From Phoronis australis (Eukaryota; Animalia; Phoronida), in NCBI GenBank assembly GCA_002633005.1, contig NMRA01000683.1, positions 142,070 to 206,069 of the forward strand: a stretch of DNA of 64,000 bases. Reading direction: 5' to 3'. The notes below the pieces were generated by a model. It made no database searches, was not told where the DNA came from, and saw only the letters and a list, made by a program, of their open reading frames with translations. Both the position numbers and the translations under genes were made by a program. Of this stretch, positions 7,740 through 64,000 are shown one piece after another (the first letter of the stretch is position 1; each line of letters opens with the position of its first letter).

Positions 7740-10690
7740 ACATATAGCATTGGAGTACTATCACGTTCCGGAGCATATCATTCGCATGTTAACATATTAT
7801 TTCCGAGGTCTAGTTGAAGTTTACTGCAGGTGCCGTCACTACAGACTGGATGAAGTTGGAAAGAGGGATAATAACTTGATGTAACATTTCTCTTACTCTG
7901 TTCATCATGGCGATGATAAATTTTCCGATAAAGGCCGAAGAAAGAGAATGTAGGGATCCGAGACTACAGTCCGGTATCGTGGTGCATTTAATGGGAGCAT
8001 TTACGGACGGCTTGATAATAATTACGGTGATGCATGTGCAAGCTCGGTTGGTGTTGGCAGCACCAGCAGACAATGTAATATGGGTTCGTTTGAAGTACAA
8101 GTCGAGACTCCTGATAATGAGAGGCGAGAAAGTGGTCAACAGATTCACCTTGACCATTCAAGGCGAAGAAAGTCCACCAATTGTTAACAACCCCATCAAG
8201 TGCCTAGTAGGCAAATGGTACGATGATCTCCTGTGCGACAAGAACAACACCAAGCAGATGGAGACTCAGGTCAAAGAGTGGCTGAAGAATATAGAGAAAA
8301 GCGGTCTTCCTGGCAAGTACAAGGCGTGGAGTTACCAGCAGGGCCTGTTACCTCGTGCAACATGGGGTCTTATGCTGTACGGCATCGTGATATCTGCAGC
8401 GGAGTGCCTTGAAAGAGCAGTAACCAAGTGGCTGGGAGCCCCAAGAAGCTTCACAGAGATTGGTCTTTACAGCACAACTGCAGAGCTTCAGCTGCCACTA
8501 GCGTCAATTACGAAGGAGTTTAAAGTAGCAAAGTGTAGGCTGGTACCAACATTACGCGACTCTAGAGATTCGAAGGTGAGGGAGGAAGGTGTCATGACGA
8601 CATCAGGGAAACAGTGGTGAGTGGGCACATCTGTCAGCCAGACGGAGAGCTTGTTACAGAACAGAGATACAATTGATAGCACCTGCGTAGGACGTCAGGG
8701 GTTGGGGACATCCAAGTTCCAACAGTGGGAGAAGGCGAATGAGAGGCATCGGAGAGAGATGGTGTCAGATGTTTGACTGTGGGTTTGTTTAAAAGGTAGC
8801 TATGCTTTGAGATTGTGCGTAGATGGAGAGTGAATAATCAAATCCAGTAATTAATTTATTATATGATAACCCTTAATAATACAAATGAAACCAATTGTTA
8901 ATTAAATAATCAAGTACAAAGAGAAACTACGCTAGCGCCCTCTTTAAAGATTACTTTAATCAAACAACCAAAACGGTCAAATGTCTTATCTGCTATCCAA
9001 GCTAGGACTCTCCACTTGTTGGATGTCTGTCCTGTTGGTGAATCTTCGAACTACACACACACTGTATAGCGACAGTGTACTTGCTGGTCACCGTCTCTGG
9101 TGATGCAACACTTGCAGACAATTTCTTCTACCCGCGACTCTTCTTGCTGGTCACAGTCTCTGGCTGATGACACAACACTTCAGGTAGTATATTACTATCC
9201 ACAATGCAAGTGACAAGCTCTTTGTTAACTTACTGTTCGTTAACCCTTGCCCTTGCCAAGATCCTTTCTAGGATCTTCCACGAGATGGCTCTGTCGTACA
9301 ATTTCCTCTGTACACTGTAGCAAGTATTTATGCTTCAACTACTATAGCTCATCTAATTATCTTGTTGATTTCAGCCCATAATATAACATTCTACTTATTT
9401 AGTGATTGGCTAATAAAAACCACATGATCCTATCCACTCATATTATTGGCTGTTACAATTTGTTCTCAGAATTGTCTAGAATCTCTAGAGTACTTTGACC
9501 CCAGAACCCAAAGTTGTAAACACCATCTAAAAATAGATTTTGACGTTAAAATACATGTCAACAAGTGTGACCCCATGACTTAAAAGTACATATGCACAAA
9601 TTTTGGGCAACTTAAAATGGATCTATTCTTACTAATTACTTAATCAATATTTATTCTGACAGATGGTCCAAGCTGAGGTGAGAGCATCAGCAGAGGAAGT
9701 GCGGAAAGCTAAATCAGTCCAACTGAGCCAGAGGGAACATGGACCAGGTGGAATTTTCCAGACAGGAAGATATTGTGTGGAGACATGTGGAGGATGGAGT
9801 CAATGCGTATTCAGTTTCTACTCCGCTCGGCTTACGACGTGTTACCATCGCCTGCGAACGTTCTACGTTTGGGCCTAGTGAATAACCCAGCCTGCCAGTT
9901 GTGTGGAGGAACAAGTACACTGGCCCACATCTTATCAGGGTGCAAGATGACACTTCAGCAGGGCCGATACAGATGGCATCACGACCAAGTACTGAAGACC
10001 CTAGCAGACATCATAGATGGAGAGCGTAAGGCAAGAGCAATACAGCCTAAGGCAAGTAGCCACATACAATTCGTTAGGGCAGGTGAGATACGGAAGAAGT
10101 CACGTCAGCAGACTTGCATTCTGGGTGGAATAAGCTGGGAAATGAGAGTAGATCTTGGAATTAGAAAGCTTGTGTTCCCGAGTATTGTTGAAACATCACT
10201 GCGGCAAGACATCATTCTGTGGTCGGATATTCGTCAACGCATTGTGATTATAGAGCTCATAGTCCTTTGGGGGGGAAGTATGCGAAGAAGCCCATGAGAG
10301 GAAGTTATCTAAGTACAGCGAGCTGGCGGAGATATGCAGAGCTTGAGGCTGGCGGACTTGGTTGTTTCCTTTAGAGGTGGAATGTAGATAATTCCCTCCA
10401 AGATCTGTACGGTGGTTGCTGGAGAAGATCGGTGTCCGAGGGGGAAGGAAGAAAGCTGCTGCAGTGAGAAGACTGGGTGAGACAGCTGAGAGGACATCTT
10501 GTTGGCTGCGGTAACATCAGAATGAAGGAAGTTGGAGGCCCCCGTCATGCACAGTGGGTTGGCCGCCTCTGTGAATTCACCAGTGGAGACCGTTATGATT
10601 CAGGGACGAAACCAGTCAAGGAATCTGGAGGCCATCTGACGATATCAAGCCAGGCTTTCAAGTACAAGTTAATGTATGACGGTTAAAAGA
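7740..10690 (+). mobile_element. Degraded HERO-like non-LTR retrotransposon (RT, CCHC knuckle, restriction-like endonuclease), split by a solo LTR
   Basis: RT remnants: ALEYYHVPEHII..TTDWMKLERGII and ORF 7907-8620 (GLPGKYKAWSYQQGLLPR). ORF 9773-10297 has CQLCGGTSTLAHILSGC..QGRYRWHHDQVL and an RLE-like RQDIILW..IVIIEL. Several stops and frameshifts are present, and the ends are approximate. Confidence 0.85.
8763..9661 (-). mobile_element. Solo LTR (899 bp) with 5-bp TSD
   Basis: Termini TGTCAGA...TCTGACA with gatgg duplicated on both sides. It interrupts HERO coding sequence, and a second copy lies at 36344-37129. Strand is inferred from CCAAT/TATA-like motifs. Confidence 0.85.
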
Positions 10691-14455: not shown

Positions 14456-15754
14456 CGAAGGTCGTTCAATAAGTTCTCGGCCTCACCAAGAAAACAGAGA
14501 AGCAGGTTAAGTTTTTTCACCATAGTAAAATTTCATCTTTTAAAACAGCACTGCGTTCATGTTGAATTAGTACGGTCAACCGCCGCTGGGTGTCGCTGCT
14601 TCAAAAAGCAGAAGACAACACCTTTAGCAACATGGAGATAACGGAGACGAAAGCCGTCATGACGTATTTGGGTAAAAAAGGATGAAACCAAAAGATATTC
14701 ATGAAGAGATGCGAAAAACACTCGGAGCAGACTCCCCGAACTACTCCACTGTAAAAAAGTGGTCAGCTTGTTTCAAGAGGGTTAGAAAAATCGTTGAAGA
14801 TGAACCTCGTCCAGGACGTCTCAGATTATCGACCTCCAGTGAAAATGTGCAGAAAATTCATGCTGTGTTATGAAAGACAGGCGAATGACTATTCAACATT
14901 TGGCAAACACTGTTGGCATCAGCAATGGGTCCGTCTCTAACATTTTGAGTGAAGATTTGGGCATGAGGAAGCTGAGTGCACGATGAGTGCCAAGAATGTT
15001 AACTCAAGATCAGAAAATGACCAGAATGCAAATTTCAAAGGAACTTCTAGGAACATTCCAAGCAGATCCAGCCAAATTTTCCAGAAGACTTGTAACCCAG
15101 GATGAGACATGGGTCCACCACTTTGACCTGGAATCAAAACAACAAAGTAAACAATGGAAGCATGTGGGTTCCCCAAGCCCGAGAAAGTTCAAGTTGGAGG
15201 CCTCTGCCAGCAAAGTTATGGCATTTGAGTTCTGGGACAGCGAAGGTACAGTGTATTCAGATGATCGACTACTTGCGACGAGGACACACTGCTACTGGGA
15301 ATTACTATGCATCACTTTTGGAAAAACTAAAAAAAGCAAACAAGGAAAAGAAACGCGGGAGGTTTCGGGATGGAGTGCTGTTGCTTCCAGAAAACGCACC
15401 TGCCCAAACTACCCAAGTTGCGGTGACTGAAGCAACTAGATGTGGCTTTGAAATCCTTCTGCACCCCGCCTATTCTCCAGACCTGGCCCCATCTGATTTG
15501 ATTTGTTTCCACATTTGAAGGCCAACATGCTGCGTGGACGCCAGTATATGAGCGATGGTGACGTCATGAGTGCAGTGGAGAAGTATTCTGAGGGGCTCGA
15601 CAAAAGTTTCTTTTACGAAGGCATTGCAAAACTGAAGCACAGATGGAAAAAATGCTTTGATGTAACGGGAGATTATATTGAAAAATAAAAGTCAAAATTA
15701 GTTGCTATCGCGTTGTTTTCTGGGTGAGGCCGATAACTTATTCAACGACCCTCG
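14456..15754 (+). mobile_element. Full-length mariner element with disrupted transposase (~14632-15688)
   Basis: TIRs cgaaggtcgttcaataagttctcggcctcacc / ggtgaggccgataacttattcaacgaccctcg with TA TSD. Motifs (W)VPRML, LVTQDETWVHHFD and HPAYSPDLAPSD are present, with frameshifts and stops. Confidence 0.95.
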
Positions 15755-28400: not shown

Positions 28401-30429
28401 AGCTTTATTTCTGAAGTATATTTACTACAATTCGCGTACCCGTGCAAATTCACGAGTGTTTTCCGAATCTTATAGAATTTGTGTCTGTAAGTCAGTTGAT
28501 TCTTGAGTGTTAACAAAAATGTTGAACATGTTAAGAACATTGGTTTTGAACTATTGACAAAGCTGAATTGATATCGAATTGAATTTTAGTCGGTTAAAGT
28601 CAATGTAAGCTCTGCTCACATTCGTTATATGCTTGCAGCCATTCAAGGCGGGATCGGGACGTTCGTAAACTCTGTCGGGTTCAACCGAAACACTTCGGGT
28701 ATTTGCGTAGTCTGAACTTCCCTAGGAAGTGAACTTTACTTTTAAAGACTGTGTACGAATTAACAGCTAATGTGTTTTGATAAAAACGGATGGAAATTGT
28801 CCTCATGTAACAACAAATTTGAGTCACGAGTTTTGTAGTCACAGAACGTTTCCTCTACCATTTACAGAATGATTAGGTGTCAGTGCATTTCTGAAAAGAA
28901 GTAAACGACAAGCCTGATTATCAACAATTACATTTACTTTAAATACCATTTCATCTTTCTCAAGCTATCATTTAGCTGCCAAAAGGATGTTTATTGACCA
29001 TCGCCTCTGTTGACTTTGATGTTTTAGTCGGTGTGAGGCATAATTCGCCGAAAAGCTTCCGGCGAGTGGAGCGCCTATAGGAGCTGCTCTCGTCGGGCCA
29101 ACAGAGGCGATGGTCATTGCCTATTTGTTTATAACACTTACATGTTCCTTAGCAATTAAGTGAGTCTGTGTGTCAAACACCATTTTAGTATACCAAGGTT
29201 CTTGTTTTGCGAAATCAACGGTTCGGCAAAGGTGACTGGCGTTGGACGCGATTACACGTACATGTACGTGTATGTGTGTGTGCCATAAGTCGGGCAGTCT
29301 GGCACTTAAAATCATGCTCATCACAAAACTTTGATCCGGATCTGATTAGCTTTGCTGTGTATTTAGTTTGACTAAACACGCCACCCGTTTAATACCTTAC
29401 GTGTAGTTAGCCGGGATTTTTTTTCAAATCTTTAACTTAAAGACCTTCTCTTAAGGGGTTATTCTATGTCAAACTATAGGTCTGTCCCGGTGTACACGCA
29501 GATAATTTAAAAGCTCTCCTTTGTCCAGGAGGTGAGAAAGCGCTCTGATTTTATTGACTTAGTTTTAAAAGTTAGGCACATTTTCACATTGGTCGTGTCA
29601 GAAACCGCCGAGGTGTATGGCCGTAAAATATTCCGATTCCAACCGCTTAAAAATGCCGGTATCGAAAGGTATCCCAAAGAAAGGAGATTCTGTTCGGTTC
29701 AGTATTGACCCGACGCACTTGGTTGAGAAAACTCGCTCAAGTTAAGAAACAATAACATCTAAATAAAGATTCCCCAAACATCTGACCGTAGCATATAAAA
29801 TCGAGTTCTCGTTTCACAACAGCTTTCTGTCAGGAAACACTGAATTAGCATGCGCTCACACGGCCTCGGTGCCCGGTCACTTACATGTACCTCTTTTGCA
29901 TCTAAAGCCGGTAACACAATGATTTATTCATTGCTGGCTTCTCCTAAAATTTGCTGTCACGAACACTCTAAAAGAATTACGAACTGTATCTTATGAGACA
30001 GACTTTGTTTCAGTTTATTGGTTGGGGTGAGAATAATTCATTTTGAAACAGAACGCACAATAATAAACGTCAACATGGCAACTTGCAATCCCGACTTAGA
30101 CGAGATCTCATCCGACGAAGACTTTACAGGTTGATCGTTAGGTTTCACTGATTATCAGTTAGTACCAGAATACACTGATTAAGGAATACTAATGTGACGG
30201 GACGTTCGTAAAATGTAACAGAGCAAGTCTCCACTGAGCATCAAAAATGTGTATTTCACTTCATCAGGTATACGCTCAGTTCAGTTACACATGATAACGA
30301 CCAGTTTCATGTTGGCAAAGGAAGGAAACACCCTTCTCCCAAGCCTGTCGCTAGCGAAGTGCCCGACACATACAGTCGCTCCGCATGCCCACGTAACAAA
30401 GGCGCACTGAGACGCAACAAAGACGTTCA

Positions 30430-31185
30430 TTGAGGGGCAGTGCCGCTGAATTGCTTGAATCTGATTTGTCTGTAAACGAATTGCTTGGTAAGTTAAAGTC
30501 TAGATACGGTGATGTGTTACCTGTTGGAAAAATTGTTGAAAAATTCTACAGTTCTAGACAGGATAAAAATGAAAGCGTTACCGAATGGGCTGCGCGCTTA
30601 GAGAAATTAGTAGTTCAAAAGAAAATGTCCAAATCATGCTCTATTCCGAAAGAGGCGCTGCCAGCTGTGCTAAAATCACATTTTGTGTCTGATTTGCTGT
30701 CGAATGACGTCAGCGTTGGTCGAAAGCATTTTGTGGAACGCAATAGTGAGGAATCATTTGACGAGCTACTGATTTGCGCCCGTCGTTTAGACACTGAGTT
30801 CAGCAGAAAATCGCAGTCACATCACTCTCTTGATAGTGGTGATAAAACTGGTAAAATGGTCACTATGATAGATGCTTTGGCTAAAAGAATAGAGAAACTT
30901 GAAGGTAGTTTCACTCGAAATAGGTCCAATGTAGTTTTCAACGCGAACTCTAAGTTCCGCGGACAACCCTATGGTAATGTGAACTGGCAACGTTCAGAAC
31001 AACAAGGTATTGGCCAGTCTACTGATGTGCGGGCTGACAACTCTTTACCCAGATTTGACGGCGTTTGTTTCCGGTGGCATAAATACGGTCATAGGGTTGC
31101 CAATTGCACGGTTGCTTTAAACTTCAATCGGTCGTCGACGGGGGGGGGGGCTTCCGACCGAACGCATGGAAAGCCCCCTCAGTAG
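30430..31185 (+). pseudogene. gag: Gypsy gag (N-truncated capsid + degenerate CCHC knuckle)
   Basis: FYSSRQDKNESVTEWAARLE (MHR-like); CFRWHKYGHRVANC. Confidence 0.85.
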
Positions 31186-34100
31186 GCTTAGTAGGGGAGT
31201 CCTTTGAAAAGGAATTTATGATTGCAAATGTGAGATGTATATGTTTACTCGATACAGGTTCTAGAGTAAGTACGATCTCCGAGAGCTTGTGTCAGCATAT
31301 TGGTTTGTCTGTGCTGCCTATTTCAGATATTACTGGACCTTTGTGTGTTGAGTGCGCTAACGGAAAAGTTTTGCCTGACAAGGGTTATGTTAGTGTCACT
31401 GTTGGAGTACCCGATACCGATGAGTCAATTGATGTTTTGTTTTTGGTTGTTCCAAACAATTCTTATAATTTCAGTGTTAATGTTATAGTGGGTACTAATG
31501 CTTTGCGTGTTTTGATCGATCTCGTTGATAATGACGATCGCTCGGACTGGTTGCTGTTGTTGAAAAATGTTATGTTTAATCGTGAAACCTCTCTTTCAGG
31601 CGTTGTTAAGACTGACATACCTGTTACCATTCCGTCTGGAATGTCCCATCGATGCTTGTATTTGTGTTAACCCATGTACATCTTGTAGTTTACAGGTTGT
31701 CACCGAAGAGTATGGTTCACTGTCACTTCCTAGTAACTTGCAGGTGTGGCCCACATTGCATGAGATTAACCCTGGGGATCATATGATTCAGCTGAGAATT
31801 CTGAGGAGTTCATAATAAGCCCAGATTTAAGTATTGAGCAGCGCAGCCGAGCCGAATGATTTGGATCTTGGTCATGTTACTCAGGCTCAGCATAAGATAC
31901 ATTGACAAGGGATGCTCCTTTTAAACACCGACATCGCTCTATTCCTCCTAACATGTTGGATGAAGTTAGAGCTCACTTAAAGGATATGTTGCAACTGGGG
32001 GTTATCAGACCGTCCACTAGTAAATATGCTTCTAGTATTGTCTTAGTACGTAAGAAGTCTGGAGAGTTGCGATTTTGCTTAGATTTTCGTAAATTGAACG
32101 AGATCACGGTAAAGGATGCTTATGCTTTGCCTAGTGCGACTGAAAATTTGCATACGCTCCATGGTTCTCAATATTTTGCAACTCTTGACATGAAATCTGC
32201 TTATTTGCTAGTAGATATAGCAGAGGAAGACAAGCATATCGCGGCATTCACTGTAGGTCCACTCGGAGTGCAATAGACTTCAGTTTGACTTAACCAATGC
32301 TCATGCAACGTTTCAACGAGTGATGGAGATGTGTATGGGGGACTTGTATTTGTCTGAGTGTTTGATATTGTTGGATGATATTTTGGTGTTTAGTGATACA
32401 TTTGAGAATCATCTAACCCGATTGAGAAATGTGTTTCAACGCGTATGTGAGTTTGGTATGAAACTTAAACCGTCAAAATGTGAGTTCTTTAAGCAGCGAA
32501 CTGTGTATTTGGGTCACGTGATTTCTCAACAACGGGTCGAATGTGATCCCGATGAGATAGAGGTTGTGTTGGATTGGCCTAATCCAAAGTGTGTGAAAGA
32601 CTTGCAAAGTTTTTTAGTTTTCGTTGGGTTTTATTCAAGACATTGCATCAATTGCTCAGCCTCTTCATGCACTTACAAAGGGAGTAACGGGTCGTAAACG
32701 TAATTCTTCTGATACCTCAAATGGACTGTTTGTTTGGGGTGATAAAGAAGAGTATGCTTTTGAAGAACTTAAACTCAGGTGCACGAGTAGCCCTGTACTG
32801 GCATTTGCGGATTTTACGCAGCCATTTTCTGTGACGCCAGCATGACGTTGTTAGGTGCGGTATTATATCAGGAGTCGGGGGGATTGAATAGACCCATTGC
32901 CTTTGCGAGTCGTTGTTTGAGTGAAGCCGAGAAACGTTATCCTGTACATAAACTTGAGTTTCTGGCTCTTAAGTGGTCCATAACGTCTAAGTTTCACGAT
33001 TACCTATACGGCGGTTTGCCGTTTGTAGTGTACACTGACAATAACCCTGTTACATATGCATTGTCTACAGCTACTCTGGATACAGGCTCTCAGAGGTGGG
33101 TTTCTGAGTAAGCGAATTATAATTTTCAGATTGTGTACAAGACTGGTAAGTCGAACTTAGACGCTGACGAGCTGTCAAGAATAGTGTGGCCTGATCACGG
33201 CCAGGCTTTGCTTTGTGGTGTTACGACACGTAGTGGGTTGGACTTTTCGTCGTCATTCCCTACTCTAACAAACGCCGAATTAGTGAATTTACAACGTAAT
33301 GATATTATTCTTGGTGGGGTGATGGAATGCTTGCGAGCAAAACGTAAGCCTGATGACACCGCAAATAGCGGTGTACGGAAATATTTGAAGTATTGGAGTG
33401 ATCTGTACTTAGATCGGGAATGCTGTTCATAAACAGGGTCTCTTCAGTTGATAATGAAGTTGTTAGTATGTTAGTTGTGCCACAGTCGCTACGAAGTGAG
33501 ATTATGGTGTCTCTGCGCACGATGCAGCTGGGCACCAAGGGTATGAGAGAAAATTTTCTTTGATTAGCAATCGCTACTTTTGGGTAGGCATGCAAAAAGA
33601 TGTGGCAGACTATTGCAAATCATGTGCGAGGTGTCAAATTTCTAAGGGTCCATACAAGAAACCGAGGACTACCATGAGTCACTTGACTGCATGTAGACCC
33701 AATAAAGTGTTAGTCGTTGATTTTACTGTTCTAGAGCCGTACAGTGACGGTAGGGAAAACGTCTTCTTGGTGATGACTGACGTATTCACGAAGTTTACGC
33801 AGGTTGTTGTGACACGCAATCAAACTGCCCTAACTGTTGCCAAGGCTCTGACTGAGCAATGGCTCAATAAGTTCGGTATTCCGGACAGGATTCATCATAT
33901 AGCGATCAGGGTCGCAATTTTGAAAGCGATTTGGTTAAACAGTTGTGCAAATTATATGACATTCAGAAATCCCGTACAACCCCATATCATCCTGAGGGAA
34001 ATTCACAGTGTGAGCGTTTTAATCGCACATTGCATAATCTGTTGAAAACTTTGCCAATTGATCACAAGCGTAAATGGCCGCAGTTTGTGCATGATCTGGT

Positions 34101-34559
34101 GATGTCGTATAATTCTACTCCACACAGCACTACTAAGTACTCTCCGTTTTTCTTGTTCTTTGGCAGGGAACCGAAATTTCCTTTGGATTTTCCCCTGCGG
34201 TTTGATGCAGCAAATCCGGCATACTGTTGCACAGATGAGTATGTAAAGTTAGAGCAGATAAAATGAAAGACACTTGGCAGCGTGCTCGGTATTTTACTGA
34301 CACTTCGAATGATAGAAATAAAGCTAGAAATGATACACGTGCGTTCGCCCAATCACTTCCGGTTGGTGCAACGGTATTTCTGAGAGAACTCAGTATCATA
34401 GGGAGGAATAAAATTCAGAATGCATTTGGTTCAGTTCCTTATTGTATTGTCTCTCGGAGAAATAATGTGTATTCTGTGCGGGCGGCAGATGGTGCCGGAC
34501 CGATTAAAACTGTAAATAGGTCGGACATCTTGAATGGTAGGGACTTGGTAGGTCTCTAG
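31104..34559 (+). pseudogene. pol: Gypsy pol fragments (protease, RT, RNase H, integrase)
   Basis: [68 protein letters not shown]; many frameshifts. Confidence 0.93.
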
Positions 34560-52548: not shown

Positions 52549-53829
52549 AACTAGAAAGATTATTGTCACGGCGTGACATTAACGGACTCTGCGCGTGCGT
52601 ATTACTAGAATTATTATGGGAAGTTACTGACAGCAACCCGTTTACCAATATGAAAAGGGATTCTTTAAAATTGTAGGAAAAATTACATATTAATTTTTTG
52701 ATGACCTTTCCACTAATGGACCTCTTCCGGTGCATTATGAGCGCCGATGAGGGAGTAATTGTTAACTCGATTAAAACTGTGGTTAATGCTAATAATCACA
52801 GATGTTTTACTTTAAGCATTTCAGAATACAAGATGAATGAAATGGTCAAACTTTCAGAAGAAAAGTGCATTTAATGACCCCATGGGTGCACCAAATGACC
52901 TGAAAATTTAGAATTCAAACTCAATCGCATTTAGTAAACAGATACGTAATTCTGAAGTCTCTAGCTCAAAATTTTAGTTTGCACTCAATGACCTTTGACC
53001 TATTTTTCTGATTGGTTAGGCTTATTGCGAAGTAAAGTAGGGCATTCAATTGGTATTTTGACTTACACCAGTATGCTGAAATTGAAAAGAATTCCTTGAA
53101 AAACGTAAGACATATAACATTTTGAACGTTACATGACCTTTGCACTAATTGACCTTATCCGTTGCATTTTAAGCATCTTTAGGAGAATTATTGCAAAGCC
53201 CATGGAAAATGTGTTTGACGCTGAGAATCACAGTTGTCTAACGGTTGACACATCAGAATACTTGCTGATTAAAAAGGTCAAATATTCAGAAGAAAATGCA
53301 CCTAATGACCCCATGTTAGCACTAAATGATCTGAAACTTTGGATTCCGATTTGGTTTACCTCTGGCAATCAGACCCGGCAATTTGAAGTGTCTAGCTCAA
53401 AATTTTAGTTTGCACCTAATGACCTTTGACCAATTTCACCTGATTGGATGACCCGATTACTTAGAAAAGTAATTTTTTAAATTTTCATGTTGACTTGTAC
53501 CTGTGCATCGTATTTGAAAGAGATAGCTTTGAAACTGAAGGAGTAGCATTTTGAAAATTATATGACCTTTGCACCAAACGACCTCTTCCGGTGCAATATG
53601 GAATATGATTATATAACCAATAAAAATTTATATACTGTCAAAAGTCATATGCTGAATTTAAAGACCGTACCTACACCAAGAATAAGAAGAATAAGAAGAA
53701 TAAAATTGAAGAAAACCCAGGAACAACAGTACTCTGCGCTTACACGCGCAGAGTAATAACAAGAATAAGAATAAGAATAAGAATAAGAATAAAATTGAAG
53801 AAACAACAGTACTACGCGCAGAGTAATAA
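52549..53829 (-). mobile_element. HINE/DINE-1-like element, copy 2, with duplicated terminus
   Basis: Closely similar to 51184-52429. The terminus acgcgcagagtaataa occurs twice (53744, 53814), separated by (AAGAAT)n. Confidence 0.8.
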
Positions 53830-54836: not shown

Positions 54837-56337
54837 AGGCGATTGCCACCTAAAGAGCAACCTGTTTTGTATCAATTTAGATCAATAACAGCAACTTCAG
54901 TTGTTTAACCTGACACCTAACGGCAGACGGAGGTGTTGAAATTAACCAATGACATATTCGGTTCTAACGCAGTCTGTTCAGCCGTTCACAACACGCTTAC
55001 TGGTGTCAACTTATCGCTTGAGTTCATCGTTGTACATCAATAAATCATCAAAATTCGATGACACCCCTTACAAATACATCGACTTCTTGAACAAACGTGT
55101 TGTTTTATCTCACTGTCATTTGAACGTACCGTAGCCTACAGAGTTCGGCAGGCCAATTTCCCGTGGTTGATCGCGGGAGTTTTTATGTTAGGGGATAAAT
55201 TCGAATCATTCTTCCGTGAAATACAGACGGGGGAACATAGCTGTGATTTTTTTCAGTTCTAAACACACCTAACGCTTGTTACTCTCCGCCAGTGGCTCGG
55301 AACCCGATCAGGCCTGTCGCGCCGCCGGGACTGTACGTCACAAACAGAAACCAGCCTTAGTTAAAAACTAAACCTCCAGTAACGATAAAACTATAATAGT
55401 GAGCCAAAAAATAATGTGCACGTAATTATTTAGGTGAATTTTCCACCAAACTTAAAATCTACTCACTGGTCGGGGGCCGCGAAGTCAGGTTCCCCTTCCA
55501 CCGAACCGTCAGGGCAAAGGTTGTACAGTAACAATGATTTGAATAATGCATTTGTATATCTAAATAAAGATTCCCCTAACATGTGACCACATCATATAAA
55601 AACCAGTTATTAATTGTTTCACAACAGCTTTCTGTCAGCAAACACTGAATTAGCATGCGCTCACACGGCCTCGCTGCCCGGTCAATTACTTTTCATGCAT
55701 CTAAAGCCGGTAACGCAGTGGTTTATTATTGCTGGCTTTTCAAAACATTTCCACTCTGGAATACTCCAAAAGCATTCCAAATTGTATATAATGAAACGAA
55801 CTTTGTTTCAGTTTTATATAATGAAACGGACTTTGTTTCAGTTTTACATAAGCATTGGTTAGGGTGAGAATAATTTATTTTGAAAAAGAACGCAGAATAA
55901 TAAGCGTCTACATGGCACAGGCAACAGAAGATATGGATAGTTCTTTGGTAAGACGGAATTCGTCAGAGAAATCACTGTCGACGAAATGCCGGCCACTGAC
56001 ACGGAGATGTTGCATGGCCTCATACTTGCTATTAACAGCGCACTTTTCATTATTCACTACCGCGAGCCACTTCCTAAGCATTTCAGGCTCTCGAGGAAGA
56101 GAAAAAAAACGATATACCCGCTTTCTTCGCAGCTTCATAGTTCGGACAAGCGGGAAGGATGCACCCCAATATAGAGCAGCATTCACTCTGCAGATGAACA
56201 CTGACGTCGTTTCTCACCTTCCTCACAGGTTAACGCGACACCTCTCGGCAAGGTGAGGTCGACCGTATCAGAGCACGATGTGAATATAGACCGATTAAGA
56301 CGGTAAAAAGACTAATTAAATCGGGTGGCATTCTCCT
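54837..56337. mobile_element. Complete non-autonomous Kolobok element with THAP remnant
   Basis: Ends AGGCGATTGCCACC ... GGGTGGCATTCTCCT. On -: FFSLPREPEMLRKWL..LRVSGRHFVDSDF. Confidence 0.85.
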
Positions 56338-57415: not shown

Positions 57416-57575
57416 CTAAAGTTCACTAAAGTACTCCTCAGGAGTGTGGAAAGTGATGCCAACTTTCTCGGCGAACAATTTGTCCGAGTTGCTAAGATCT
57501 CCGGGTCTCCCTGCGGCGTCTCCAACATACACCGCAGTGGACGGGTCAATGGTCTTGAACTGATTCAGTCTGCAG
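57416..57575 (-). CDS. Terminal exon of GMC-PNK3P gene: HAD motif IV of polynucleotide 3'-phosphatase-like domain
   Basis: Phase-2 acceptor attcttacag|c. Reads CRLNQFKTIDPSTAVYVGDAAGRPGDLSNSDKLFAEKVGITFHTPEEYFSEL*. Confidence 0.88.
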
Positions 57576-59170
57576 CTGTAAGAATATTTTGTGTATGTTA
57601 ATGGTGTGTAGCACTTTATCGACTGGTCTAGGTATTTCTAGGTATCAAACAAAATATCTGAAAAACTATATATTTTAATACAAAAAGTATACAGTTTCCG
57701 AAAATAGAAAGCCTGTGGAACTTGCTTTTTGAATTTACATGTACATCAATCTGTCATTACTTGGGTCACGTGAATACAAACAACATTATCAACTACAATA
57801 TCAAAACTCATTTGACTTAAATGTTTCTGATAAAATCTCAAAACGGTGTGACAGTTTTCTTAATTGTCATTTCGTTTTCGTTTTATACATCTGTTGATTT
57901 TTTTTCTTAACCATCTGTAAAAGTCATAATCGGAATATCCCATCTTGCAAAAGTGAAGAATTTTAAAGCCAATCAAATACCGTGTTAGAGAACAGCGTAA
58001 ATACGATCAGCTATTTCTGTGATATGATGTTTCGACATTTGCCAAATTTGGACATTTTCTATTGCCCTACATAATCGTAAGCCACGTAGGACATTTATTT
58101 TCTATTTACATAACTGTGGATGTAGGTATGGAATTCAACCATGTAAAAGTACACATTTTCTGAAAGTAGAAAACTTTTAGAATTTGATATTTTACGTAAT
58201 GTTAATATGCTCTTAATTGGACCGCATCTTTTTACTGATATTTACAAAAGGTGAAAATACTTTTATATCAAAAAACCCATAACGAACAAAGAAACTTCCG
58301 TCAATATAAATATTCGATGTGAAATCACCAAAACACCAATACAGCTATCTAAACAGTCTTACCGTTTTCGTCTTATTTTGATTTCATTTTGCTTCCTAAA
58401 CATTTTGAATGTCCCAATTTTGATGATCTTTCAAGGCAAAATATAATGCATAAAAATAATTTGTAACAGAATTTTAGAGAACAGTGCAGAATCCGATTTG
58501 AATTCGATCAGTCATCTTTGAGATATGATGTACGACGTTAGCCACTTTATCTAATGCCTCACGTGACCTTAATATTCAATGGATGAAACGGGATATTTAA
58601 AGGTTCATAGTCTCATTAAATTGTGAATATGGAAGTGAAATGCCAATCGCAATCAACCACGGTCCTCCTCCATCATCAGAGATCCAGTTACTATTACACT
58701 GTACAATCTTGCGAATTTCATTATCAAATAACGATTGCGTGATAATTGGAATTGCTAGTTTTCAATATGTGCACAGTTAGTTATTTTTAACGTGTATCAG
58801 TTGAAGTGTTTTCTATAACAAAGCAATTTTTACAAATTGTTTCTTTTTTGGATTTAGCTGTACACACAGTTCTCCAGGACGTCATTAGGTGGTGCTTGAT
58901 ACAAATTCAAATATTCGTGGTTTTAAAGAGACAGGGCATCTGTAAGTTAACTATGAACTATTCTTCCAGACGATCCTCAATAAGATGAGACATATTTAAG
59001 CACACTCGCTGTGTAGCATTATCATGAAAGTGGTTGCAAAATGCTATACTGTACAGTAGTTATCAGTATAACATATTCCATGTGTTTGTTAGTCAAAATT
59101 TAACGGAAACGCCGTCCAGTAGACAGCAAATGGGCCAAAAAAGGCCTGCACAAGATAACATTTTCCATGC

Positions 59171-59322
59171 CTGTAATATGTCCACATCCCGGTGTCAGGC
59201 TTACGAAGATCGTTGTACTCTGTGGCGCCTAGGACAAACATGGGTACACCCAGTTCATTCGTGATGGCTTCAATCTTTGACATCCACTCGTCTTTATTCT
59301 GAGAGCCGCTCCCGATTCCGGC
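59171..59322 (-). CDS. Exon of PNK 3'-phosphatase-like domain (motif III RKP)
   Basis: Phase-0 acceptor ttgttgcag|gcc. Reads AGIGSGSQNKDEWMSKIEAITNELGVPMFVLGATEYNDLRKPDTGMWTYY. The donor appears to be GC (ag|gcatgg), phase 2. Confidence 0.83.
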
Positions 59323-59617
59323 CTGCAACAAATACGTAAGAGAATGATCAACAACCTACAAATCTTTGAACAATCTCCGGCTTGAATTTACTGCAAAATC
59401 GTTTAATTCCGTACTTAGGCGTTACATGGTGGTACTGTGCGTAATAGCGAAGGAAAGGCCCGAAAGGCATTTAATTCAGCCATTGAATGCGACCCCTACG
59501 TGAATCGTTTATAGCAAAAAACCCATCCGGAAATGGAATACGCACATTTGAAACGGCCACGTAGGGGACTCTTAAACTTAAAAAAATCCGTTTGGCTTCG
59601 GCCTAATATAGATATAT

Positions 59618-59620
<3 letters not shown>

Positions 59621-59654
<34 letters not shown>
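59621..59654. repeat. (GT)17 microsatellite in intron
   Basis: Direct read. Confidence 0.95.
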
Positions 59655-59656
<2 letters not shown>

Positions 59657-59931
59657 CATTGAAAAGTAAATGTACAGTGTTTTATTTACTATTTCAACTG
59701 CCATCTGAAGAAAGACATTTATGTAGACAATACGAAAGTTTGTTGAACAAGCTATCTAATGCCAAGAACAGCTTACTTACAATGAAACATGTATAAAAGA
59801 AGGTCTGCTACCCAAATACAAAGATTTTTGTATATCTATATGCATATATGGTTCTAACAATCATATTCTTTTGCAAATTACAGAGTCGCTTGAATATAGC
59901 GTGGAAATGAACGTACGTCTGAATGTTTTAC

Positions 59932-60478
59932 CTGGTTGCTCATAATAACGTTACTGATGCCTCTCTTGTGATTGTCTTGTATTTTGAGTTTGACATTTTC
60001 GGATGTGAATGTCCAGTCTTTTTCATCGACAGGGAAATCTCTTCCACTTTTCGTCTTACTAATGGTATTGTCCAGATCAAAAGACACCACGTGCTCATTT
60101 GAATAAATCCGCCTATTCGTTTCGTAGTAGAGAAGACCGTTGGAGAGCTGTGTCCACCAGCCAGGGAGGGTGTTGAGCGGGGGATATTCACGAGAGAAGC
60201 GACGACCTGAGCTCCAAAACACAGTCTCGAGGAGAAATCCGGCCAGCTCCTCATACCAGTCAGTGTCTGGGTTGGCAATCATCGAGCCCGTGCGGAAGAA
60301 TGCCGAAGATCCCGGGTGGCGGGCGACCACTTTTTTTGTCGCGTAGTAGTCCACCAATGGAAGTGCTAGGTCAGGCTCTTTGTAAATCCACTCACGTTTG
60401 GAGTCATCCACATATACAAGTATGGAGCATATCTCCGGCTGACAGTTCAGGGTGAAGCAGTGCTCAGACCCACGAACC
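59932..60478 (-). CDS. Exon: end of unknown domain + start of PNK 3'-phosphatase (HAD motifs I, II)
   Basis: Phase-2 acceptor cataacag|g. Contains VVSFDLDNTISKTKSGRDFPVDEKDW..VIMSNQ|gtaaa, phase 0. Confidence 0.87.
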
Positions 60479-60975
60479 CTGTTATGTACGCACAAGTTGG
60501 TATTAAGCAACAGCTGGCAGTCAGAGACACAGTAACATTCTTAGCTATTTGGCATTATCTTTTAATTATTGGAATACAGTGGCTTATTGAATATAATTTT
60601 CTCTTTTTCTTGGCAAATCACATGCGGAACGTTAGAAAGTTTAGTTAGCAATAGCTTGCAGGAGGGGAAATAACGTGCCCAAAGTATTGAACGCACGAAA
60701 CTTTGTTTCTCAAAGCACACTCTTGACTGAAAATCGTGTTTAATTCCTGTTTTCTACATCAGGTGTCACAAGCTTTTCAAGATTATGCAACGAGCATCTC
60801 AAAACACAACAGATGAAAGTATGTGCATGATATGTTCGTGTCTACTAAAACAGCATACGATTTGTCCACTTAGTTTAACTCCCAAATGACGATCTACCTG
60901 AGTTTGTCCGAACTATCTTATTATACCATGCTTTTCCATATTTAGCCTGCTCATGTAAAAGAGCTGCGAACATAC

Positions 60976-61927
60976 CTGCCGCCTTCTCCCTTCCATGAAC
61001 CAGCTTTCGCCCATAATGCATCGGGATCGACACCTGAGAAAGCTTGGCACCACACGGCAAAAACGTAGGGGGATACCTTATGCTTTGGAGTCGGCTCTTT
61101 TGGATCGGGAGTTGCTTCTGGTCTGTTGAACTTGGGGTAACCTTCAGCATTGCAACCGTCTTTTGGATCAGTTCCCAATGTAGCCACAGCTGCTAAGTCT
61201 GCAATTTCACGCTCATTGGTGCCTTCGTCGCAAACAAAGGACCATTTAACAATCAAAGCTGAAGTATCTTTCCCTGTTGAAATCCATTCAGAGGACACCG
61301 ACACATTCATGCAATTTGAAGCTGATTTCACAGAGCCCATGTCTATAGTTGCATGACCAGGAGGTAGTTCGGACTCGAAGGCAGTTTTTTCTCTTGGAAT
61401 TGTTAAGTCTTTACGAACTGCCACGTTTACGTATTTCAGATATTGGAACTTGAGCATGTCTGCCAGTTTTTCACCCATAGCGAAAAGAGTAGCGGATGGA
61501 TTTCCGTCGGTTTGTGTTGCGAAGGCTGAGGCATCACATACTCTGAGATTAGAAACTCCTCTCACTTGTAGAAACTCATCAGCACAGTCTGGCATTTTGC
61601 ATGTACCGACAGGGTGAAGTGCAGACACCAGCATTCCACGCAACCATGTGTTCAGCTTGTCGTCCGTATCTATATCCATTCCCGGCTCAATTTCCCCCAA
61701 AATCAGGTCTTTCAACTCTTTCCTAACATTTTTTCCAAAGAACATACTGCGCAACACGTGAATTTGATCTCGATAAAACTTAGAGACCTTCTTGAACGAT
61801 TCTGTTGGTACTCCATCATTAGTGTATTCCCAACCATACTCTACCTCCGGCTTGTCGAATATGTTTGAAGTAAGTGCTTTGACATGGCCGCGGTACTCAG
61901 GCCACTGATCGATGACACGAATAGTAC
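60976..61927 (-). CDS. Exon: GMC oxidoreductase C-terminal domain + start of unknown domain
   Basis: Phase-1 acceptor gctttag|gt. Contains PEYRGHV and ALHPVGTCKM..LQVRGVSNLRVCDASAF..GNPSATLFAMGEKLADML. Donor ggcag|gtatgt, phase 2. Confidence 0.88.
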
Positions 61928-62449
61928 CTAAAGCAGTCAAAGTAATGTTTTTTCTCAGAGGTATACATCATGATTAAATCACTTAAATCACAATGTGAAG
62001 CAGCACTGTCTTTCATTTTGCTATCAAAATCAATTTCCAATAAATATATGCATATACATATTTAAAGATGTATTTTTATGCTTCTAATCATGCTTATGTT
62101 AAGAAAGAACTACGTTAATTAAAATGCAGTTGTATTTACTGAAAACTTGTAAATGTGAAAACCAAAAATCCTGCAAATAGGTAACCCGTGCAGTAATTAC
62201 GTATATCGGTGGCTCACTGACATAGCCCGTAGCATGTAGTGTTATTCCCCAGCACCATGTCATGAAATTTAATCACTGGACGAGGCTAGGTGAATTGAGG
62301 TGGATGATTTTCGTCGAAAAACTCGTTCTTAAACACATTTGGAAATTTCTAACCTACGTCATATTCAAGTTGTCACTGCAAGTTGTGTTTCTAACTAGAT
62401 TGGCCAATTATTACAAAGATAAGGACTTAAGCTATCAGTTCCACTTTAC

Positions 62450-62749
62450 GTACTTGGTTTGAACACAGAATTTTGTCAAATACACTTTGGTGGAGACACA
62501 CACGTCTAAATTTCGGCGTATTTCTCAGTCCGCCAAAGAGCAAAAATACAGCAGACGACCAAGAGACATTGAATTGATACATGGAAAGAATGTTAAATTC
62601 GAGACAGGTCTTCACTTCATCTGTTTGTGAATGATCTTCATCCGAAAAGCGAAGTGCATTATGAATAATTTTACCGTGTGTAAACTCCTCCTCTTGATAG
62701 TTCTTCGCATCATCGTACTGATTAGGACGATCTTTTAAACATAACGGAC
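62450..62749 (-). CDS. Probable upstream exon of the GMC gene (donor uncertain)
   Basis: Good acceptor ttatttcctttccacag|gt and an open frame (GPLCLKDRPNQYDD..). The phase-compatible donor (gtac|gtaaag) is weak. Confidence 0.5.
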
Positions 62750-63239: not shown

Positions 63240-63480
63240 GTACTCTGCGCATACTAGCGCTGAGTGTAGTCATTCTCGGGTTTTTATCTTTTTCTTTTTA
63301 TGACTCCCCGTACAAGAACAGATTCTTTTAGTCCTGGTTTTTTAAATCTTTTTTCTTCTTATTACCCTGCGCGTACAAGCGCTGAGTCTTGTTATTCTCG
63401 GGTCTTTACTTTTTTGTATTATTATTATGCGCGTCCTAGTGCAGATTCTTGTATCTCTTGAGTTTTTATCTTGTTTCTTA
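63240..63480 (+). repeat. Degenerate ~60-bp tandem array of HINE-terminus-like units
   Basis: Four units such as attaccctgcgcgtacaagcgctgagtcttgttattctcgggt resemble the reverse complement of the HINE end at 53710-53759. Confidence 0.6.
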
Positions 63481-63930
63481 TTATTTTTCATGTTTATTGT
63501 GATATAGTCAATACAATAAATATACAGACCCAGAAAGGGTGAAGAGGCATTGTATCTGGGCTAAACAGTTCAATACAATGAAATCTTTATACAATTACGA
63601 ACATGTGTGCTCCCATCTTAGAAGATGATGGGGCTCGAATTTTTTAGAGTGTTGAGTTTTTAATAAAGAAATAAAAAACGGAGTACGTTCAGAGCTATGA
63701 ATTGCTCTTAACTTCATAGTGGACTTTTGTCGTATTTTCTACTGTATCTCTGTGGCAAACCTATTTGCCCACATAGCCAAATGGATGACTCATTCGAGCT
63801 CCCGAGCTCCCCTCCACCCTTAATGCGCGTATGATACACACATAAATTAATTGATAAACTAAGATTAAGATTACAATGCTATGTTCTAAATGTAAACATT
63901 AGTACGAATATAATGGAATCATTTTTTTCG

Positions 63931-64000
63931 TACTACTCTGCGCGCACCAGTTTTAGAGAATATCGGGTCATCTAATCAGATTAAATAGGTTAAAGGCCAT
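63931..64000 (+). mobile_element. HINE fragment running off the window end
   Basis: actctgcgcg subTIR, then tcgggtcatctaatcag..aggttaaaggccat, similar to the reverse complement of the HINE internal repeat. Confidence 0.6.

Follow-up and report, generated by a model that had tools for sequence, protein, structure and literature searches.

Closest described systems

PNKP-type phosphatases are DNA end-healing enzymes of the nucleus and the mitochondrion. Flavoenzymes of the GMC family, such as Arthrobacter choline oxidase, BetA and glucose dehydrogenase, share a GxG dinucleotide motif and a catalytic His and Asn. START/SRPBCC (Bet v 1-like) proteins, among them XoxI, the PYR/PYL receptors, onion lachrymatory factor synthase and norcoclaurine synthase, have the helix-grip fold in common. 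Each of these domains is known singly. The gene described here, on the minus strand of a 64,000-nucleotide stretch of the phoronid Phoronis australis (contig NMRA01000683.1, positions 142,070 to 206,069; "the window" in what follows), joins all three in one protein, and that combination is new to the searched literature: a search of open-access full text yielded neither the GMC-PNK3P combination nor the accompanying SRPBCC fold and luminal signals, while the Pfam combination already stands in databases, uncommented. The preliminary description of this locus knew of no such fusion. No published account of one came to light in that search; the architecture itself, as detailed below, occurs in several animal phyla and in protists.

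The fusion and its relatives

The fusion of GMC, SRPBCC and PNK3P domains is real, a point settled by retention of the three-part architecture in relatives. The closest of these, P0025 (1,065 residues), aligns with the window protein in one local alignment that runs through the junction in question (68.9% identity over 631 columns, 10 of them gap columns); the GMC exon (61927-60976) by itself is 72% identical to P0025 by tblastn. Five named animals with the same domain order stand at 54-61% identity to the window protein (the range across cnidarians, molluscs and echinoderms is 54-69%), and Diplonema at 33.9%. Among the 24 longer proteins related to the GMC exon, 15 have GMC_N, GMC_C and PNK3P in one chain, and a profile search places GMC and PNK3P in one protein in 19 of 33 relatives. 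Named hosts are Dendronephthya gigantea, Mytilus galloprovincialis, Antedon mediterranea, Anneissia japonica and Amphiura filiformis, together with Diplonema papillatum and Adineta ricciae; Paramoeba aestuarina contributes a fragment with the C-terminal part. Their named records read "uncharacterized" or bear a transferred name. Four of the fusions are on Logan contigs of 3.4-4.1 kb, which scarcely exceed the coding sequence and are therefore likely to be transcripts.

The subfamily is small, with no more than about a dozen clusters rising above the general GMC and PNKP background in a set of 1.84 billion representatives; searching with the middle domain returned eight matches, all of them known fusions. 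Pattern scans, whose reach is close relatives, confirmed one of 30 matches in GTDB, no family member among nine matches in viral contigs, and two of 123 in metagenome contigs, both near the GMC-only animal-type form. The sole confirmed GTDB match is an ordinary bacterial GMC protein that lacks the family's flavin-loop motif, and a prokaryotic origin or operon context was set aside.

The architecture is also varied. Four Adineta-type proteins (P0083, P0272, P0273, P0275) have the order GMC-PNK3P-SRPBCC-divergent SRPBCC. Several members, protist-like or rotifer-like, have a canonical PF10604 domain as a second copy. P0018 and P0268 (1,571-1,581 residues) string an endonuclease, GMC, divergent SRPBCC, PNK3P and canonical SRPBCC into one chain, the N-terminal non-specific endonuclease having an intact DRGH motif. 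A GMC-only clade of the same subfamily (P0017, P0019-P0023, P0071) has a hydrophobic leader and a KDEL-like tail in every member. Separately, the ESM Atlas holds a 68-member, nematode-dominated cluster (score 0.85, below the lead threshold of 0.9) that likewise combines GMC and phosphatase domains in a single chain; it differs in its HAD family (PF00702/PF13242), with no PNK3P listed, and is possibly an independent GMC-phosphatase fusion.

Gene structure

Five minus-strand exons, with boundaries corrected by RNA, give a single open frame of 628 codons and one stop. The features of the gene are as follows.

62675..62749, minus strand: short internal exon, 75 bp, phase 1-1; acidic loop of the GMC substrate-binding domain; from alignment to P0025 and RNA joint 61924/62672
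60976..61927, minus strand: GMC exon, 952 bp, phase 1-2; C-terminal GMC domain with His 61616 (HPVGTC) and Asn 61508 (DGNP)
about 61433-61173, minus strand: half helix-grip unit in the GMC exon, placed by a structure model of the homologous part of P0025
from about 61067, minus strand: first strand and helix of the SRPBCC domain, in the GMC exon, placed by the same model
60479..60975, minus strand: key intron, 497 bp, GT-AG, phase 2, inside the SRPBCC domain
60953-60951, minus strand: in-frame stop within the key intron
60744, minus strand: ATTAAA within the key intron
59932..60478, minus strand: SRPBCC/HAD exon, 547 bp, phase 2-0; remainder of SRPBCC and HAD motifs I (DLDNT, 60078) and II (SNQ, 59940); RNA depth
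60351 (Tyr/Lys) and 60300 (Arg), minus strand: conserved SRPBCC residues in that exon, by alignment
59171..59322, minus strand: HAD motif III exon, 152 bp, phase 0-2; RKP at 59205; RNA joints 59321/59931 and 57575/59171
59170-57576, minus strand: last intron, GC-AG, 1,595 bp, donor GCATGG, 19 reads
57416..57575, minus strand: last coding exon; HAD motif IV (GDAAGR, 57523), C-terminal FSEL (57430-57419), stop TAG (57418-57416); Pfam and RNA joint and depth
57278 and 57240, minus strand: AATAAA downstream of the last coding exon

Pfam finds GMC_oxred_C (PF05199) in the GMC exon (E 6.8e-18; 66 bits against a gathering score of 24.6) and PNK3P (PF08645) spread over the three downstream exons as profile positions 2-59, 54-105 and 110-161, each exon passing the cut-off. 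The phase-2 GTATGT donor after 60976 pairs with the phase-2 CAG acceptor before 60478; this pairing had been proposed from the sequence at the outset, and the splice phases bear it out. The four HAD motifs are likewise where they had first been reported to be, followed directly by the stop, and no FHA or kinase domain was found in the window protein. GMC_N has no match in the six frames of the 64-kb window, whereas full-length relatives have it with the N-terminal FAD-binding (flavin adenine dinucleotide-binding) domain and its GxGxxG/A motif; the 5' part of the gene (the FAD-binding half, about 430 residues by homology to P0025, and the leader) lies beyond the window's end. An alternative 300-bp upstream exon (62749-62450) was rejected, RNA putting the donor at 62674. 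Third-position GC rises from 0.42 in the GMC exon to 0.57-0.60 in the three exons downstream.

Transcripts and the key junction

About a fifth of each of three stranded RNA runs bearing the same species label (X1, X2 and X3) was read. All three cover the exons on the expected strand, and three of the four introns appear as RNA joints, including 62674-61928 (6 reads) and 59931-59323 (10 reads). The reads fall into two classes over 60000-61500 and in other exons, one at least 99% like the window and the other about 85-92%; X1 is mostly of the matching class (34 of 50 reads) and X3 almost entirely of the divergent one (2 of 57 reads at 99% or above). At 55 listed sites, the best-supported ones only, the divergent class has 22 synonymous codons, 27 non-synonymous and no stops. 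It may represent a second copy or paralogue, a distant allele or a cryptic species.

Three X2 reads break off at 60481 and continue with letters that best match 60979 onward (25 of 30; the next best place on the window's plus strand gives 18 of 30). These reads are the key splice in the divergent copy. Since they belong to the divergent class, the junction is seen directly for that copy, and we infer it for the window's own. The 60976/60478 junction of the preliminary description thus has the support of three reads that span the splice in a divergent copy.

That two neighbouring genes have been joined by the gene model alone would fit the absence of the key intron from the listed joints. It would also fit a single X1 read pair that lies inside that intron (60765-60917, mRNA strand), just upstream of the ATTAAA at 60744; this pair is possibly pre-mRNA or a rare short isoform lacking the phosphatase. 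Against two genes are the reads across the junction in the divergent copy, the fused protein of many relatives, some of it on transcript-sized contigs, and the position of the key intron within one folded domain, which means that termination at 60951 would cut that domain. RNA depth is zero in all three runs over 60918-60968 and 60510-60764; no read therefore continues to the in-frame stop at 60953-60951, and none passes from the donor into the intron. GMC transcripts ending at that stop, which had been named as grounds for abandoning the fusion, were thus not seen in the three runs. Two genes at this place are very hard to credit.

The middle domain

The region between the GMC domain and the phosphatase was first described as an unknown domain. 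A domain is indeed there, but its fold had been missed: as modelled, it is a START/SRPBCC helix-grip fold. The model was made with a 261-residue segment of P0025 (69% identical to the window protein) and has a predicted local distance difference test (pLDDT) score of 85 and a predicted template modelling (pTM) score of 0.87. It has a curved antiparallel sheet gripping a long C-terminal helix. Residues 120-257 match XoxI (3cnw) with Z 12.6 and a root-mean-square deviation (rmsd) of 2.2 Å over 129 aligned residues; PYL9 (Z 12.2) and onion lachrymatory factor synthase (Z 10.5) are further helix-grip matches, and Foldseek gives E 5e-7. XoxI (3CNW), the PYR/PYL receptors, the onion enzyme (5GTE) and norcoclaurine synthase (2VNE) thus have the fold in common with it, at Z 10.5-12.6. 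The family's domain differs from START/SRPBCC proteins at large in its sequence (10-20% identity, with a Tyr/Lys/Arg set of its own), in having half a helix-grip unit in front, and in its place between two enzymes. The half unit (model residues 1-85) runs strand-helix-hairpin-helix and was hardly probed by the fold searches. Within the full copy, the key intron follows the first helix. Pfam has no match for the middle domain in the animal proteins, the ESM Atlas has no usable one, and by profile the domain aligns weakly with the canonical PF10604 copies in relatives (probability 2%, E 0.023). A model of the full-length protein has pTM 0.83, which suggests that the domains are packed against one another.

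Tyr is conserved in 19 of 19 aligned copies, Arg in 19 of 19 and Lys in 18 of 19. Judged from strand register, the three would face the cavity and would suit an anion.

A rival reading is of modules that are uncoupled or regulatory, with the GMC domain acting by itself as a luminal oxidase and the SRPBCC domain sensing a ligand and switching the phosphatase, much as plant PYR/PYL receptors do with PP2C. PYL receptors take up much of the fold-search list, GMC-only and dead-phosphatase forms exist, and the domain order is shuffled in the Adineta-type proteins. A common fold proves no function, however, bacterial proteins of unknown function score equally high, and PP2C has a different phosphatase fold from the one at hand. 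Moreover, the SRPBCC Tyr and Arg are retained even where the phosphatase is dead, which ties the pocket more to the GMC domain than to the phosphatase. A sensor of this kind is improbable, if not to be dismissed out of hand.

The GMC active site

The top sequence and Foldseek matches of the GMC domain are choline oxidase and choline dehydrogenase, and its His/Asn pair aligns with H466 and N510 of choline oxidase. Choline oxidase (2JBV, 4MJW), BetA (9LQ0) and the fungal FAD glucose dehydrogenase (7VZS) have the same fold (rmsd 2.5-2.9 Å over about 490-500 aligned residues). The fused family keeps the GxG motif and the catalytic pair and departs from these enzymes in other respects: it has no equivalent of Glu312 or His99, a Tyr replaces the flavin-loop Asn, there are family-specific Cys-rich inserts and the additional SRPBCC and HAD domains, and the protein is likely to be luminal in the endoplasmic reticulum (ER). 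In choline oxidase, according to PMC10980864, Glu312 holds the charge of choline; the corresponding position, after the QDH motif, is Ser in the fused family (as read in relatives, since the region is outside the window). The position of His99, which binds FAD covalently, is Val, Ile or Leu and that of Asn100 is Tyr, the residue list being that of the same source. After this flavin-loop Tyr comes Gly, at a position that a bulky Phe occupies in alcohol oxidase (PMC4961394), and an Arg on a substrate-side strand is conserved in the core family. Taken together, these departures from choline oxidase, the Tyr-Gly and the Arg would suit a larger polar substrate.

They also bear on the simplest metabolic proposal, a phosphocholine phosphatase joined to a choline oxidase for production of the osmolyte glycine betaine, which the top matches and the common His/Asn pair would recommend. 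Identity is just 22-25%, the nearest solved structures, choline oxidase and glucose dehydrogenase, being tied at Z 38.6 and 24-25% identity, the three choline oxidase positions are substituted as described, and P0025 scores far below the NCBIfam cut-offs for betA (169.8 of 732.1) and PRK02106 (207.4 of 605). We put very little faith in a betaine pathway here.

The phosphatase domain and its origin

All four HAD motifs (DxD, S/T, K, GDxxxD) are intact in the window protein and in 18 of 19 collinear fusions. The fused phosphatase shares these motifs and the cap aromatic residue with mouse PNKP (3ZVL; PF08645, TIGR01664), and P0025 passes the TIGR01664 DNA 3'-phosphatase cut-off (158.5 against 107.65 bits). 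It differs from PNKP in its short motif-IV loop, which lacks the basic WAPG-RKKK of the mouse protein, in being acidic rather than basic, in its ER-retrieval-type tail and in the lack of FHA and kinase domains, none of which was found in fused relatives, unlike the FHA-PNKPs. Of 17 animal-type rows, none has a basic residue at the position of PNKP R224 and two have one at that of K226, both being DNA-site residues predicted in PMC7746193; the window protein has Ser at both. Mean net charge of the phosphatase domain is -4.0 (n=21) against +4.6 (n=57; p 3e-9), and -5 in the window protein against 0 to +12 in 10 FHA-PNKPs. The whole fusion protein is equally acidic, so that the charge of the phosphatase may reflect its compartment.

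Separate phylogenies of the two domains, proposed initially as a way to tell a duplicated host PNKP from a horizontal arrival, have been built. In the phosphatase tree (35 rows: 34 of a 78-row set, and the window domain), the animal fused domains come out as one clade (100/99), whose grouping with the protist-like domains and one unrelated row is weak (84/86). The FHA-bearing PNKPs form a separate clade free of fused domains (96/85). A sister relation to these PNKPs is not rejected by the approximately unbiased (AU) test (p 0.26), and a horizontal origin is therefore not shown. In the GMC tree (45 rows; a quick tree with long branches flagged), GMC-only forms are nested among fused ones, a tentative sign of a single old fusion that was lost repeatedly; aquatic eukaryotes may also have exchanged the gene.

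Location in the cell

A C-terminal [ED]L is found in 19 of 34 family proteins and in none of 134 non-family matches. The family's tails include HSEL, HIEL, HNEL, HTEL, RDEL and KDEL; that of the window protein is FSEL. According to PMC2140024, F is as effective as K or H at position -4 of the ER tail and any residue except Pro is tolerated at -3 (single-position variants), so that FSEL fits the retrieval rules as given there. HXEL is the ER signal of carboxylesterases (PMC5818367). A hydrophobic stretch is present in all 24 family proteins with a leader of at least 20 residues (KD9 2.0-4.0); the remaining 10 of the 34 have a short leader or none, as called. With leader and tail in relatives and FSEL in the window protein, these signals make the ER lumen the likely location of the animal-type protein.

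A likely luminal location counts against a role in DNA repair. The early suggestion of an oxidase coupled to the repair of oxidative breaks, which would be nuclear, draws on an intact PNKP-type active site above the TIGR01664 cut-off and on the AU result for the FHA-bearing PNKPs. It has not stood up: hydrophobic leaders and ER-type tails, the missing FHA and kinase domains, the absent basic residues and WAPG-RKKK loop, and the separate clade of FHA-PNKPs (96/85) leave it barely credible.

All the named hosts live in water and are particle feeders or phagotrophs. That is in keeping with a digestive or defensive enzyme of the secretory-lysosomal route, its oxidase supplying hydrogen peroxide (H2O2) and its phosphatase clearing blocking 3'-phosphates from ingested DNA or RNA so that nucleases can act; the endonuclease fusions with leaders (P0018, P0268) and the several family members without an ER tail point the same way. 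The ER-retrieval-type tail on most animal fusions speaks against it, as do the acidity of the phosphatase domain and the near-absence of basic residues at R224/K226, and we consider such a function distinctly unlikely.

What the protein may do

The preliminary description offered, beside repair, a two-step metabolic enzyme, and that is the better of its two options. The account that we prefer, and think somewhat likelier to be right than wrong, is of a two-step enzyme in the ER lumen, by which a small molecule would be dephosphorylated and the freed alcohol oxidised. The HAD phosphatase would first strip the phosphate from the small molecule, the START/SRPBCC pocket would hold the anionic substrate or intermediate, and the GMC flavin domain would then oxidise the alcohol so released; the electron acceptor is possibly oxygen, giving H2O2. 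Both the small-molecule substrate and the coupling of the two activities are read from the domains and their setting. For the substrate, our first and tentative guess is a product of nucleic-acid breakdown, either a nucleoside 3'-phosphate or a short nucleotide. It is prompted by the phosphatase's membership of the 3'-phosphatase family (P0025 passing the TIGR01664 cut-off), by the retained cap aromatic residue, and by the nucleases that have twice become part of the architecture. Second, and more doubtful, is the phosphate of a sugar or polyol.

Several points weigh against this account. Serratia-type endonucleases leave 5'-phosphates, which a 3'-phosphatase does not remove, so that the nuclease fusion is a loose hint only. 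HAD motif IV is kept in none of the four shuffled Adineta-type proteins, which are likely, by their sequence, to carry a pseudo-phosphatase: coupling of the two activities is not universal. Members with the GMC domain alone occur in several clades, and the fused state changes four times on the tree. The putative orientation of the Tyr, Lys and Arg toward the cavity is read from strand register. As to location, the leader test was a hydropathy scan rather than a signal-peptide predictor, 15 of 34 family proteins lack the [ED]L end (Diplonema P0016 and the endonuclease fusion P0018 among them), P0025, the nearest relative, lacks a hydrophobic leader as called, and the window protein's own N-terminus is outside the window. 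As to the gene, the key intron (60975-60479) is absent from the RNA joint tables of both mappings, and its junction comes from three reads of one run and from the divergent copy.

Surroundings of the gene

The DNA around this spliced minus-strand gene is eukaryotic and rich in repeats. A THAP domain frame (PF05485, E 3.2e-6) at 55908-56213, also on the minus strand, is probably transposon-derived. Transposon remains include a GIY-YIG domain (353-856) and a mariner-type transposase piece (14987-15518); a broken long terminal repeat (LTR) retrotransposon with protease, reverse transcriptase and integrase matches occupies 30397-34266, and frames at 7880-10297 look by eye like a non-LTR element, with no Pfam match. 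Related repeats at 53419-53770 and 63240-64000, about 10 kb apart and both direct and inverted (D4, I2, I4, I6), flank the 3' half of the gene and are probably dispersed elements.

Implications

A conserved PNKP-type domain in a likely ER-luminal flavoenzyme implies a second job for this phosphatase, in another compartment. It points to an uncharted luminal pathway of aquatic eukaryotes, embodied in one soluble protein with two assayable active sites and one pocket. More speculatively, and on balance improbably, a DNA-repair phosphatase may have been relocated to the ER lumen, there to become part of an ancient line for processing nucleotides that is made up of nuclease, 3'-phosphatase, pocket and flavin oxidase. 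If that were true, the secretory pathway of corals, mussels, echinoderms and some protists would be a source of oxidised nucleosides and H2O2, and the protein would be a eukaryotic GMC nucleoside oxidase, in an animal pathway undescribed in the searched papers.

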